In this document: positions 20,973 through 28,038 of the stretch, in pieces
How positions within the stretch are numbered: position 1 is the stretch's first letter
How the letters are laid out: each line of letters opens with the position of its first letter
NCBI GenBank assembly: GCA_050948865.1
Contig: JBMNEQ010000004.1
Location: 62,477-126,476, forward strand
DNA length: 64,000 nucleotides
Reading direction: 5' to 3'
Source: Bacilli bacterium
Lineage (GTDB): Bacteria; Bacillota_I; Bacilli_A; RF39; UBA660
Translations under genes and position numbers: made by a program
The notes under the pieces: model-generated
What the model was told of the DNA's origin: nothing
The model's input: the letters and a program-made list of their open reading frames with translations, nothing else
Database searches by the model: none

Positions 20973-22109
20973 ATGAAAAAACAAGGTTTTACTTTAATAG
21001 AATTACTAGCGGTTATAGCTATATTAGGAATAATTTTAGCTATCGCTGTTCCAAATATTGTAGGTTTAATTGAAAAAGCAACAAAGAATGCTTTTTTAGT
21101 TGATGCTAAAAATGTTTTAAGAGCAGTAGATTATTATCTACTTGATAAAGAAGATGTTTCCTCATTAAAAGATTTAGATGTAAATTCTATAGAAAATACT
21201 TTAAATATTGGTAGTTCTAATTATAGTAGTTTTGAGGTATCTTTTGATCAAAATTTTAAACCTTTTATAAAAATAGTCGGTAAAAATAAATGGCAAGGTT
21301 TAATGGCTTGTGGAACTTTTACCAATTTACAAATAGGTTCTGATATTGATTGTGAAGTTCCCCCTTTTCCAGCAAAACTTCCTGGTAGACACTTATGTGG
21401 TAGTGTATTTTATGATGAAAGAGATGGTAATAAATATAAGACAGTTAAAATAGGAAATCAATGTTGGTTTGGGGAAAATCTAAGGTATACGGGAAGTGGT
21501 TGTTTAGTTAATTCCATAGATGATTGGAAGAATGAATCTCCTTATGGGGTCTGTATGATGTATATTGAAGAAGAAGATTATCAGGGTAATGATGTTCCAT
21601 TGTGGGTTAAAAATGAAGAAGTCTTATATCAGTGGGGAGCAGCAATGAATGGCAAATTAAATCCTCAAACTGTAGAAGATCGACAAGGATTATGTCCTAG
21701 TGGTTGGCATATACCATCTGATTATGAATGGAAGGTATTAGAAGCATATGTTGATAGTAAGTATAAAGAAGTGGATGAAGAAGATGAAAATAATGAATGG
21801 AATGATTTGGGTGATGGAAAATATCGCGGTAAAGATGCTGGTAAAAATTTAAAATCAGCAAATAAGGATGAGTGGAATGATCCTTCTGGTGCTGGTACAG
21901 ATTTTTATGGATTTATGGCTCGTCCTGCTGGTTCTCGCATTACATCGGGTATTCTGAACAACGTTGGGACGACCGCGTATTGGTGGACGTCCTCTTCCGG
22001 TGAGGGTTCTGATGCTTGGAGGCGTGGTCTGGTTTCAGACGATGATGGTGTGGAACGTGGTCTGAATTCTCAGGCTAACGGCCGTGCTGTGCGCTGTATC
22101 CGGGACTAA
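20973..22109 (+). CDS. type IV prepilin-like protein fused to a Fibrobacter-succinogenes-major-paralogous (TIGR02145-like) domain, paralog 1
   Basis: Class III signal peptide MKKQG|FTLIELLAVIAIL (G-1, F+1, E+5). C-terminal region has RDGNKYKTVKIGNQCWFGENL, YQWGAAM, CPSGWHIPSDYEW, WWTSSS and a final RCIRD, all matching the Fib_succ_major domain. AAAGGAGG RBS. Confidence 0.8.
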   Translation: MKKQGFTLIELLAVIAILGIILAIAVPNIVGLIEKATKNAFLVDAKNVLRAVDYYLLDKEDVSSLKDLDVNSIENTLNIGSSNYSSFEVSFDQNFKPFIKIVGKNKWQGLMACGTFTNLQIGSDIDCEVPPFPAKLPGRHLCGSVFYDERDGNKYKTVKIGNQCWFGENLRYTGSGCLVNSIDDWKNESPYGVCMMYIEEEDYQGNDVPLWVKNEEVLYQWGAAMNGKLNPQTVEDRQGLCPSGWHIPSDYEWKVLEAYVDSKYKEVDEEDENNEWNDLGDGKYRGKDAGKNLKSANKDEWNDPSGAGTDFYGFMARPAGSRITSGILNNVGTTAYWWTSSSGEGSDAWRRGLVSDDDGVERGLNSQANGRAVRCIRD

Positions 22110-22272
22110 ATTCAGCAAGCCCTTAGGGAGAAGCCTTTTGCTTTTAACCTCCTCCAAGACCGAAGAGACCTTATCAAGTTAATTTTACAATTTACAAGAA
22201 GATTAAATTTATTAAATAAGAATAAAACCTTGTTATAAAGTGAATAATAATATTAAAGGAGGCTTCTTTAAT

Positions 22273-23322
22273 ATGAAAAAACAAGGTTTTACTTTAATAG
22301 AATTACTTGCAGTAATAACTATATTAGGAATAATTTTAGCTATAGCTGTTCCAAATATTGTAGGTTTAATTGAAAAAGCTACAAGAGAGGCCTTTTTAGT
22401 TGATGCTAAAAATGTTTTAAGAGCAGTAGATTATTATCTACTTGATAAAGAAGAAGCCTCTTTATTAAACGATTTAGATGTAAATTCTTTAGAAAATACT
22501 TTAAATATTGGTAGTTCTAACTATAGTAGTATAAAAATATCATTTGATCGACATTTAAATCCTTTTATAAAGTTAGTTGGTAAAAATAAATGGGAAGGGT
22601 TAATGGCTTGTGGAACTTTTACTAATTTAAAAATAGGTTCTAATAAGGATTGTGATGTTCCCACTTTTCCAACAAAACTTCCTGGTGGACAGTTATGTGG
22701 TAGTGTATTTTATGATGGAAGAGATGGTAATAAATATAAAACAGTTCAAATAGGAGAACAGTGTTGGTTTGGGGAAAATCTAAGGTATACGGGTAGTGGT
22801 TGTTTAGTTAATTCCATAGATGATTGGAAGAATGAATCTCCTTATGGTGCATGTCTGATGCATATTGAAGAAAAGGGAGCTTTGAATGGGGTTGTTCCTG
22901 ATTGGGCTAAAAATAAGGAAGTAACATATCAATGGGGAGCAGCAATGAATGGTAAATTAAATCCTCAAACTGTAGAAGATCGACAAGGTTTATGTCCTAA
23001 AGGGTGGCACTTACCTACTGATGCAGAATGGGGGACGTTAATTGATGGGCTAAGTGGTTCAGCTGGTGTTAAATTAAAAAGTACTCCACCGGATTGGGAT
23101 GGAGAAGAGCAAGATAATTCGGGGTTTAATGCTCGTCCTATTGGTTATCGCTATACGTCGGGGGATCTTTTGTTCGTGGGGTTTTACGCAGGTTGGTGGT
23201 CGTCCTCTTCTGGTGAGGATGATAATGCATGGAGTCGCACCGTCCAATCAAGTACTTCTGGTGTTTTTCACAAAACGTCTCCTCAGGCTTACGGGTACTC
23301 GATTCGATGCGTCTTAGACTAA
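22273..23322 (+). CDS. type IV prepilin-like protein fused to a Fib_succ_major (TIGR02145-like) domain, paralog 2
   Basis: Identical prepilin leader and N-terminal ~110 aa to paralog 1. Same domain motifs (RDGNKYKTVQIGEQCWFGENL, CPKGWHLPTDAEW, WWSSSS, RCVLD). Tandem duplicate including the promoter and RBS. Confidence 0.8.
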   Translation: MKKQGFTLIELLAVITILGIILAIAVPNIVGLIEKATREAFLVDAKNVLRAVDYYLLDKEEASLLNDLDVNSLENTLNIGSSNYSSIKISFDRHLNPFIKLVGKNKWEGLMACGTFTNLKIGSNKDCDVPTFPTKLPGGQLCGSVFYDGRDGNKYKTVQIGEQCWFGENLRYTGSGCLVNSIDDWKNESPYGACLMHIEEKGALNGVVPDWAKNKEVTYQWGAAMNGKLNPQTVEDRQGLCPKGWHLPTDAEWGTLIDGLSGSAGVKLKSTPPDWDGEEQDNSGFNARPIGYRYTSGDLLFVGFYAGWWSSSSGEDDNAWSRTVQSSTSGVFHKTSPQAYGYSIRCVLD

Positions 23323-23482
23323 ATTAGGCCCTGTATAATTAACTGTGTAAAAGTCAAGGGTGTTATGAGATTTAAAACAATTTACACAATTAATTTGATA
23401 AGGTCTTTTTTGAATTATCCTTTAGTTGTTTAATTGGTAAAACTTTGATATAATTTTAATAGGATAACATAGAGGTGATATC

Positions 23483-26310: not shown

Positions 26311-26325
26311 AAAGGGGATGATAAA

Positions 26326-27327
26326 GTGTTAGAAAATTTAGAATTACCTTTATTTCAATTATTATTTGTTCTTTTTTTAACTATAATTTTATTTTATTTA
26401 ATTAAATTAAATAAGGCTTTAAAATTAGAGGAAAAGATTGGTTCTTATACTGTAAAATTAATAATAAAGGAAAATTCTTTAAGTGATAATCTTTTTAATT
26501 TTTATAATAATATAATTAATAAGATTACTAATTTTTTAATAAAAATAAAGATTTTTAATAAATATAGTAAAAGGTATATAAAGTATATAGATTCTTTTTA
26601 TAACAGTAAAAAGAATCCTTTAGATTTTGTTTCTTTAAAAATACTGTTAGGGTTTCTTTTAATTATAATTTATTTAATAATTGCTTTTATTTTATTTCAT
26701 ACTATTAAATGGTATTTACTTTTATTATTTCTTTTAAGTGCTTCTTTTTTACCAGATATTTTTTTAATTTATCAAGAATATCAAAAAAAGGAAAGAATTA
26801 AAAAAGATTTATTAAATGCGATAATTATTATGAATAATGCTTTTAAATCAGGACGTAGTATTATGCAAGCGATTGATATTGTTCAAAAAGAATTAGATGG
26901 TCCGATTAAAGAAGAGTTTCACAAAATGCATTTAGAAATTATTTATGGTTTATCTTTAGAAGTTGTTTTAAAACATTTTGCTAAACGAGTTCAATTAGAG
27001 GAAGCGGGCTATGTTGCTTCTTCTTTAACAGTTTTAAATAAAACAGGAGGGAATATTATTAAAGTGTTTTCTTCGATTGAACGTTCTTTATTTAGTAAGA
27101 AAAAATTAGAATTAGAATTAAATTCTTTAACAGCTAGTTCTAAAGCACTGAGTAAATTTTTATTAATCTTACCATTTATTTTTAGTGGAATGATTATTAT
27201 TTTAAATCCTCTTTATTTTGAACCATTAATTAAAACAAGAATAGGTCTTTTAATTTTAGGTGGATTATTTCTTTTTTACACCTTATATATATTTTTAGTT
27301 GGTAAGATTATGAAGGTGAGGTTTTAG
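26326..27327 (+). CDS. TadB-like inner-membrane platform protein
   Basis: T2SS-F-like domain (IIMNNAFKSGRSIMQAIDIV...LPDIF) with flanking TM segments. GTG start after AAAGGGGA. Confidence 0.6.
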   Translation: MLENLELPLFQLLFVLFLTIILFYLIKLNKALKLEEKIGSYTVKLIIKENSLSDNLFNFYNNIINKITNFLIKIKIFNKYSKRYIKYIDSFYNSKKNPLDFVSLKILLGFLLIIIYLIIAFILFHTIKWYLLLLFLLSASFLPDIFLIYQEYQKKERIKKDLLNAIIIMNNAFKSGRSIMQAIDIVQKELDGPIKEEFHKMHLEIIYGLSLEVVLKHFAKRVQLEEAGYVASSLTVLNKTGGNIIKVFSSIERSLFSKKKLELELNSLTASSKALSKFLLILPFIFSGMIIILNPLYFEPLIKTRIGLLILGGLFLFYTLYIFLVGKIMKVRF

Positions 27328-27330
27328 GCT

Positions 27331-28038
27331 ATGGAACAGTTAAAATTAGGTTTAATGGAACGTTTATATTCTAAAAGGGAAATTAAAAAGATTAACCGTC
27401 AAATAAATTTATTAGGAATTAATAAAAAGATAACTGTTAAATATTTTTTAAACTTTCGTTTTTGGACAACTCTTTTTCTTTTTGTTTCGGTATTTCTTTT
27501 AAGTAATTATGGTTTTATTTATGCTCCTTTTTTAAGTTTTATTTATTATTTTTTTTGTTCTTATTTCTTTTTAAAAAAGCCTCTAGAAGAAAGAAAAGTA
27601 AAATTAGAACATGAAGCTTTTTATTATTTTGAAGTTTTAACTATTACTTTAGAATCAGGACGGAATTTAGAGAATTCTATTTTGATTGCTTGTAATTATA
27701 TTAGTTCAGAAATAAGTGAAGAATTTAAAGAAACTTTAAAACAAATATCACTTGGAAAATCATTAAGTGAGGCTTTAGAAAATATGCAAAAAAGAATTCC
27801 TAGTGAAGTAATTAATAATATTATTTTAAATATTATTCAATCTAATTTATTTGGTAGTAATATCTTAGAAACAATGTATAATCAATTAGATTTTCTTCGT
27901 GAAAAACAAATTTTAGCGATTAAAGAAGAGATTAGTAAAATTCCTCTTAAAGTTAGTGTTCTTTCAGTTTTATTTTTTATTCCTTTAATTATGGCTTTAA
28001 TATTAACCCCTTTATTAATAGAATTTTTTTTAATGTAA
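27331..28038 (+). CDS. TadC-like inner-membrane platform protein
   Basis: Second GspF-like domain (LTITLESGRNLENSILIA) and a C-terminal TM. Follows tadB. Confidence 0.55.
   Translation: MEQLKLGLMERLYSKREIKKINRQINLLGINKKITVKYFLNFRFWTTLFLFVSVFLLSNYGFIYAPFLSFIYYFFCSYFFLKKPLEERKVKLEHEAFYYFEVLTITLESGRNLENSILIACNYISSEISEEFKETLKQISLGKSLSEALENMQKRIPSEVINNIILNIIQSNLFGSNILETMYNQLDFLREKQILAIKEEISKIPLKVSVLSVLFFIPLIMALILTPLLIEFFLM

Follow-up and report, generated by a model that had tools for sequence, protein, structure and literature searches.

We examined a 64-kb window (64,000 nucleotides) of the chromosome of an uncultured, spore-forming, low-GC gut-type 'Bacilli bacterium', in which two tandem genes encoding type IV prepilins with a FISUMP domain (gene 1 and gene 2) stand directly upstream of a Tad pilus cluster. 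The G+C content of the window is 22–32%, mostly around 25%, and its sequence is identical to part of the 788-kb JGI contig Ga0534105_00077. The gene order on the plus strand is yceD–rpmF–nudix, gene 1, gene 2, tadE–tadF–tadZ–tadA–tadB–tadC, RNase J and a gerA/B/C operon. Coordinates given without a label are those of the window; labels such as L007 denote loci used for comparison. The two pilin genes and the Tad genes are as follows (aa, amino acids; RBS, ribosome-binding site).

20973–22109, plus strand: gene 1, modular type IV pilin 1; 378 aa; RBS aaaggagg; leader MKKQG|F; pilin module approximately residues 1–145, FISUMP module (predicted C-type-lectin fold) approximately residues 146–378
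22273–23322, plus strand: gene 2, modular type IV pilin 2; 349 aa; architecture as in gene 1
23483–23833, plus strand: TadE-like minor pilin; Flp-type signal MRTNKG|QALLEF; PF07811, 47.4 bits (cut-off 22.9)
23826–24212, plus strand: second TadE/TadF-like (TadE/G-like) minor pilin; MNSRG|QTLVLF; PF13400/PF07811, 18–19 bits, sub-threshold
24212–24985, plus strand: TadZ/CpaE-like ParA/MinD-type ATPase; matches to AAA_31, CbiA and ParA
24985–26310, plus strand: TadA/CpaF secretion ATPase; T2SSE, 200 bits; best NCBIfam match TIGR03819 (TadA family), 320 bits, below its cut-off of 373
26326–27327, plus strand: TadB platform protein; single T2SSF domain, 43.6 bits
27331–28038, plus strand: TadC platform protein; single T2SSF domain, 59.2 bits

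The original prediction for this locus, made from the sequence alone, had named the same downstream set on the same strand (two TadE-like proteins, TadZ, TadA, TadB and TadC), and hidden Markov model (HMM) matches or gene position recovered each member. With a TadA-type ATPase, the paralogous platform pair TadB/TadC, TadE/TadF minor pilins and TadZ, the cluster belongs to the Tad systems; the second minor pilin scores below threshold, yet its position is conserved. The coupled or overlapping starts that had been described hold from tadE onward but not before it: 163 nucleotides (nt) separate gene 1 from gene 2, and 160 nt separate gene 2 from tadE. No A24 prepilin peptidase motif was found within the window, which means that the locus has no dedicated TadV/CpaA.

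Two tandem modular type IV pilins

Both proteins begin with the leader MKKQG|FTLIELLAVIAILGIILAIAVP, which has the short basic stretch, the glycine, the phenylalanine at +1, the glutamate at +5 and the run of around 20 hydrophobic residues of a class III signal, as in type IV pilins. PF07963 (N_methyl) matched gene 1 and gene 2 with 32.3 and 31.7 bits (cut-off 21.2), and TIGR02532 with 33.7 and 32.7 bits (cut-off 16.3). Downstream of the pilin part, each protein carries a full-length FISUMP (Fib_succ_major) domain, which we take to be that of IPR011871: PF09603 covers profile positions 1–187 with 103.5 and 102.3 bits (cut-off 33.9), and TIGR02145 scores 112.8 and 115 bits (cut-off 41.65). All of the sequence motifs previously quoted are present (RDGNKYKTV.IG.QCWFGENL, YQWGAAM, CP.GWH.P.D.EW, WW(T/S)SSS and RC(I/V).D). 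These motifs, together with scores above the curated cut-offs, confirm the earlier observation of a prepilin leader joined to a FISUMP domain in two tandem genes.

In an alignment of 50 homologues, F6, T7, L8, E10 (E5 when counted from the cleavage site), L11 and L12, all in the N-terminal part of helix α1 (α1N), are invariant. An AlphaFold2 model built on these 50 homologues (mean pLDDT 89) has a 52-residue N-terminal α1 helix, a small β-sheet and a separate globular module. The modelled N-terminal part has the pilin fold, with an extended α1 packed on an antiparallel β-sheet, and the globular module is predicted to be a C-type-lectin fold, so that modelling of the C-terminal domain, which the original prediction had proposed, bore out its lectin-like character. 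No PDB chain was matched when the FISUMP module was used as a sequence query.

Stand-alone PilA-type pilins of 127–154 aa share 43–48% identity with the two proteins over 84–91% of the pilin module, which makes both of them modular pilins as Raynaud et al. 2021 (PNAS, PMC8179133) use the term. Dataset S1 of that study lists IPR012902–IPR011871 as the fifth most frequent modular-pilin architecture, with 40 proteins. The fusion of a prepilin to FISUMP as such is therefore not new, and the impression that the arrangement was undescribed has to be given up. The counterpart of the FISUMP module in that study had "no clear function" (PMC8179133). A tip or minor-pilin adhesin role, as suggested earlier, is reasonable for class-III-signal proteins with a FISUMP head. 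A search with the pilin module returned only short proteins, none of them from contig Ga0534105_00077.

The 5′ 750 nt of gene 1 and gene 2 are around 90% identical and their 3′ thirds 52–61% identical. The 74 nt preceding the two genes are the same in both. These upstream segments and two features read in the gap before tadE are listed here.

20899–20972, plus strand: private upstream cassette of gene 1 (putative promoter, 5′ untranslated region and RBS aaaggagg); 100% identical to 22199–22272
22199–22272, plus strand: private upstream cassette of gene 2; duplicate of 20899–20972
23326–23412, plus strand: putative intrinsic terminator, a long imperfect hairpin ending in GGUCUUUUUUG (U-run); minimum free energy −23.3 kcal/mol, z −1.3
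23446–23454, plus strand: extended −10 box TGATATAAT, candidate promoter of the tad operon, around 28 nt upstream of the tadE start; read by eye

A core of the upstream cassette, AAACCTTG(T/A)(T/C)A...GGAGG, recurs upstream of most of the dispersed paralogues described below (L088_a, L089_b/c and L090_a–c), and the prepilin–FISUMP genes look, in sequence, like self-contained promoter–gene cassettes. The hairpin with its U-run, followed by the extended −10 box, suggests that gene 2 and tadE are in separate transcription units. A consensus promoter and terminator scan found fewer promoter-like sites than in shuffled sequences and no terminator in the intergenic gaps, leaving the hairpin at 23326–23412 unlisted; the hairpin and −10 calls are thus a reading by eye.

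Relationship to the neighbouring Tad cluster

Prepilin–FISUMP genes are present in at least 12 copies at at least five sites on contig Ga0534105_00077, and so form a large within-genome paralogous family of the kind that defines FISUMP. Apart from the pair in the window, there is a copy after rplQ (P0004), a pair before hrcA, a trio near cotH and four tandem genes near yqeG and rsgA. Only the window pair adjoins pilus genes; 10 of the at least 12 paralogues have housekeeping contexts.

We compared the window with the TadA neighbourhoods of 63 related species (L008–L070; TadA 63–75% identical), all metagenome-assembled genomes from gut or rumen labelled Bacilli, Mollicutes, Erysipelotrichaceae, CAG:710, CAG:822 or Ca. 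Coprosoma. The tadE–tadF–tadZ–tadA–tadB–tadC core is present in essentially all of these loci, some of which are cut by contig ends. TadE is conserved in the great majority, the second minor pilin is kept in position in most, and the position of TadZ is conserved. The HMM of the FISUMP module matched none of the 63 related Tad loci. Around 25 of them have a true flp gene just upstream of tadE, with a product of 63–82 aa, the motif ...KG|QALVEY... and a PF04964-like match of 23.9 bits, which is sub-threshold. The comparison of synteny in relatives, which had been proposed as a check, thus turned out unfavourably for the claim that the FISUMP proteins are Tad substrates. An A24 motif was absent from the window and from L008–L070, and the identical scan detected TadV in six Tad loci of distant phyla; since these Bacilli loci have no TadV, a single prepilin peptidase probably serves both signal classes.

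In the relatives, flp usually has a divergently transcribed partner, a DUF192 (PF02643) gene of around 100–120 codons (L010 7741–8376 and around 20 further loci among L008–L070); we know of no description of this gene as a Tad accessory gene. Neither flp nor the paired DUF192 gene occurs within the 64-kb window. In four other relatives, the flp slot upstream of tadE is occupied by one to four tandem genes for proteins of around 165–182 aa (L016 5996–8404, L025 6578–8387, L044 7961–8461 and L057 3337–3852). These proteins share N termini of the form MKDSKNLVIG..C.VMAVAYAAF.TTL.INGTASI, have no Pfam match and may be an alternative pilin class or carriers of SipW-type signals.

Pilins that begin G|FTLIE usually have a PilB/PilC/PilD machine as their partner. 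Such a machine is encoded in the same lineage: L093 5076–10377 is a compact type IVa pilus (T4aP)/Com-like cluster with two minor pilins, PilB (T2SSE, 410 bits), PilD (A24_N_bact, 116 bits; A24, 57 bits) and PilC (two T2SSF domains, 171 bits). In four species (L044, L051, L052 and L070), PilB lies within 8 kb of the Tad genes. The candidate major pilins of the lineage are orphan genes, and as its pilin genes are generally orphans, gene position is a weak guide to their function. The L093 PilC is unusually long (674 aa), with an N-terminal extension that is rich in lysine and glutamate and has several transmembrane segments, before its two T2SSF domains.

The account that we favour, with moderate confidence, is that genes 1 and 2 are a recent tandem duplication of one cassette from a modular-pilin family derived from a diversity-generating retroelement (DGR), that their products are lectin-headed modular type IV pilins on a PilB/PilC-type filament, and that the neighbouring Tad core is an ordinary monoderm type IVc pilus (Tfpc) system. 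A separate promoter cassette would drive each gene, and the product would be inserted into the membrane, cut after Gly5 by a PilD-type (A24) peptidase encoded elsewhere and, by analogy with bifunctional PilD enzymes, N-methylated at Phe1. A PilB/PilC-type machine would then build it into a type IV filament, as a subunit of low abundance or at the tip, and its lectin-like head would bind a glycan or another surface ligand. The pair would adjoin the Tad genes because a mobile cassette carrying a paralogue had landed in the variable region that precedes tadE, not because the products are Tad substrates. The role of Tad substrate that had been proposed for the FISUMP proteins is unsupported, given their T4a/Com/GspG-type leader, their paralogues elsewhere, their own cassettes and the PilB/PilC/PilD genes of relatives.

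Several observations weigh against the PilB/PilC-type account. The hairpin at 23326–23412 is statistically weak, with a z score of only −1.3. In a metagenome scan with a PilB alignment, contig Ga0534105_00077 is not among the matches listed (at least 600), and the best 120 matches of a profile search for such machinery were all closer relatives of the query, which leaves the PilB/PilC/PilD genes shown for relatives only. No Flp-like open reading frame (ORF) was found within the 64-kb window by tblastn and a motif scan, leaving the locus without the Flp major pilin expected of a Tad system, and the window pilin genes fill exactly the slot that flp has in relatives; flp of this species may be encoded elsewhere in the genome. 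In addition, N_methyl pilin genes are found close to Tad cores more often than expected. Five were counted within 400 bp of the cores, with around one expected from a flank density of 0.02 per kb (Poisson p ≈ 0.003), and not included in the five are two genes located within a core and two L018 genes that the regular expression missed. In L020 and L065, such a gene stands between flp and tadE.

The loci with N_methyl pilin genes beside or inside the Tad core number seven (L018, L020, L032, L040, L050, L055 and L065), and the pilins have no head, an Ig-like/Flg_new head or a DUF285/leucine-rich-repeat (LRR) head. In L020 the pilin ORF overlaps the 3′ end of flp and lies directly against tadE, and the L065 gene between flp and tadE encodes a 1074-aa N_methyl–DUF285 pilin. 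The enrichment of core-adjacent genes over flank density is around 5–7 fold, making some functional link with Tad possible. The Tad loci of distant phyla (L071–L087) have no N_methyl pilins nearby, so any such link would be specific to this lineage.

On this evidence, the Tad (Tfpc) machine itself could assemble or display T4a-type modular pilins, and the FISUMP proteins would be its pilins or tip adhesins, replacing Flp at the locus. We regard this as unlikely. It would account for the position of the two genes on the same strand directly upstream of tadE and for the enrichment, and a peptidase shared between the signal classes would accommodate it; in addition, the window TadA has sub-threshold matches to archaeal BasE and FlaI, ATPases that handle large class-III-signal proteins. 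If it were so, a Tad machine opened to T4a-type modular pilins would build a filament or a Tad-driven pseudopilus displaying interchangeable, ancestrally DGR-diversified heads, an undescribed hybrid of pilin classes that we likewise think improbable. Tfpc pilins are defined by an Flp motif in α1N and by very small size (PMC6916266), whereas the FISUMP proteins have G|FTLIELLAV in place of G|XXXXEY and are 349–378 aa in length in place of around 45–80 aa. Their best N-terminal NCBIfam matches are of GspG, ComGC and PilA types, and their α1N belongs with the T4a/Com/GspG type and not with Flp. Neither the related Tad loci nor most of the paralogue sites join FISUMP to Tad, the pilin genes bring their own promoter cassette as well as a putative terminator, and gene position counts for little in a lineage of orphan pilins. 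Systematic replacement of flp by N_methyl pilins was rejected: such pilins are adjacent to the core in four loci with flp, three without and one for which this is unknown, and being found with flp about as often as without it, they are no simple substitute for Flp.

It is also doubtful, and somewhat more so, that the class III signal serves for processing and anchoring only, in which case the proteins would be membrane-anchored surface lectins or very short pseudopili with no long pilus, by analogy with the archaeal bindosome. Genomes of this lineage, of around 1.2–1.3 Mb, encode many large N_methyl proteins with unrelated heads. In addition to FISUMP (at least 12 copies), we found the N_methyl leader on DUF285/LRR (1074 aa, L065 4856–8077), on Ig-like and Flg_new domains (579 aa, L055 6712–8448), on an ALK/LTK glycine-rich domain next to pilB (557 aa, L092 4200–5873) and on DUF5011 (961 or more aa, L172 18301–21047). 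The variety of heads suggests that the class III signal is a general device for surface display in small genomes. The flank density of N_methyl genes, around 0.02 per kb, extrapolates to around 25–30 genes per genome, far above the usual need of a pilus, and the prepilin–FISUMP genes are dispersed and individually promoted. However, the modelled pilin module is complete, with α1 and β-sheet, and its homology to stand-alone PilA-type pilins extends along the whole module; the invariance of E5 and α1N in the 50 homologues is expected under selection for polymerization; and the characterized modular pilins, PilB and PilC of Streptococcus sanguinis, are filament subunits.

A diversity-generating retroelement in the same family

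Around 400 kb from the window on the same contig, L007 10001–13656 contains the complete set of DGR components: the target P0004, a MutS_I fragment, bAvd, a template repeat (TR) and an RVT_1 reverse transcriptase (also in L173). The TR is 206 nt in length (12235–12440), and the variable repeat (VR; 10901–11090) is at the 3′ end of P0004. Identity between TR and the P0004 3′ end is 89.5%, and of the 20 mismatches 17 fall at TR adenines, the pattern that marks P0004 as a DGR target. A perfect 11-bp hairpin follows the VR (z = −3.0). By these sequence features, the L007 element is a live DGR with a prepilin–FISUMP target. In the assembly, a 1-nt deletion in the VR truncates the P0004 ORF and may represent the collapse of a hypervariable population. 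Surveys report FISUMP domains and, rarely, GspG-type pilin domains in DGR targets, and one counts FISUMP in 43 targets (PMC11661182).

The window genes have related 3′ segments.

21918–22112, plus strand: 3′ segment of gene 1, VR-like, homologous to the L007 TR; 70.3% identity, with mismatches at all four TR bases (19 at A, 13 at C, 9 at G and 17 at T)
22110–22166, plus strand: remnant of the 3′ flank of a DGR target; 57 nt can be aligned with what follows the P0004 VR; hairpin truncated
23131–23325, plus strand: 3′ segment of gene 2, VR-like; 71.3% identity to the TR; mismatches at all bases; static across assemblies

Neither gene has the pattern of a DGR target: identity to the TR is 70–71%, mismatches fall at all bases, and the hairpin is decayed or absent. 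The window segment that matches the target hairpin folds no better than shuffled sequences; gene 1 is followed by a truncated copy of the hairpin and gene 2 by none. The gene 2 segment is the same in the window, in L001 (whose sequence is identical to that of the window) and in two further assemblies, L005 and L006. We regard the window genes as fixed, diverged ex-targets or as non-targets of the DGR; under the PilB/PilC-type account the family would descend from a DGR target and still include one, and the window copies would be fixed ex-targets. That they are instead active targets, hypervariable adhesins diversified in trans by this DGR, is highly improbable and was discarded: the live element on the same contig, the homology of their 3′ ends to the TR with protein-level differences clustered at TR asparagine codons, and the 57 nt of target flank kept by gene 1 would fit, but the mismatches are spread over all four bases (19–22 at A, 11–13 at C, 9–11 at G and 12–17 at T), gene 2 is static, the hairpin is truncated or missing and the 64-kb window contains no TR.

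The G+C content over the two pilin genes is 29–32%, compared with 22–28% around them (window 20001–24000). Most of this increase lies in the VR-like 3′ ends (an example is ggccgtgctgtgcgctgtatccggg) and is consistent with past adenine-to-N mutagenesis.

Known systems and other genes of the window

The closest characterized relatives in design are S. sanguinis PilB, with a von Willebrand factor A module, and PilC, with a lectin module (PMC8179133; Shahin et al. 2023, PMC9934059). As in the window proteins, a binding module that is not pilus-specific has been grafted onto an IPR012902 pilin in a monoderm member of the Bacillota. PilB and PilC are, however, encoded inside a T4aP (pil) locus and have been shown to be in filaments, whereas the window family is dispersed in at least 12 copies, two of them beside a Tad core, and is known from its genes alone. 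The Tad cluster itself resembles the Tad/Tfpc locus of Bifidobacterium breve UCC2003 (PMC6916266) in its minimal set of TadE, TadF, TadZ, TadA, TadB and TadC, with the peptidase off-locus and no secretin. It differs in having no Flp pilin gene and, in the upstream slot, T4a-type modular pilin genes.

The C-type-lectin fold predicted for the FISUMP head is also that of the DGR variable proteins TvpA (Treponema denticola, 2Y3C), TaqVP (Thermus aquaticus, 5VF4) and Mtd (Bordetella phage, 1YU0). Unlike these, the window genes are not current targets, and a type IV pilin takes the place of a lipoprotein or phage-fibre scaffold as carrier. DGR-diversified adhesive components are also known from the type V pili of Bacteroides (bioRxiv 10.1101/2024.11.15.621889), which share the concept of a gut bacterium whose pilus subunit bears a lectin-fold head open to diversification; those pili use sortase-like strand exchange and belong to another phylum, whereas the window pilins are of the type IV, class-III-signal kind. 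The Sulfolobus Bas system (archaeal bindosome) similarly has large binding proteins with prepilin signals next to TadA-family ATPase and platform genes. The window TadA scores only 134 bits against BasE (cut-off 1000), which does not support membership, and the window cluster is bacterial with canonical TadZ, TadE and TadF, making this an analogy only.

If the PilB/PilC-type account is correct, the locus adds one more example of a modular-pilin architecture that is catalogued and functionally unstudied, with the added context that the FISUMP head has a predicted C-type-lectin fold of DGR type and that gut Bacilli with small genomes have a dozen pilins of this kind. Active diversification of at least one copy would extend retroelement-driven variation from the type V pili of Bacteroides to type IV pilins. 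A true link to Tad would show a Tfpc machine to be capable of handling T4a-class pilins, which bears on how the machines of type IV filaments select their subunits.

Three further regions of the window contain genes of note. A bacterial serpin (18390–19661; PF00079, 326 bits) with the lipoprotein-type signal LLFSGC is encoded three genes upstream of the pilin genes. At 55492–57949, a plus-strand gene for a XerC-like tyrosine recombinase is followed by a minus-strand ORF of 408 aa that looks by eye like an IS30-type transposase, of which an HTH_38 domain alone was confirmed. At 59285–63415, a surface protein of 1376 aa has an N-terminal transmembrane segment, an acidic linker and repeated Bact_surface_Ig-like (DUF5011) domains, and its C-terminal half, which is repetitive and rich in glycine and asparagine, looks β-helix-like.

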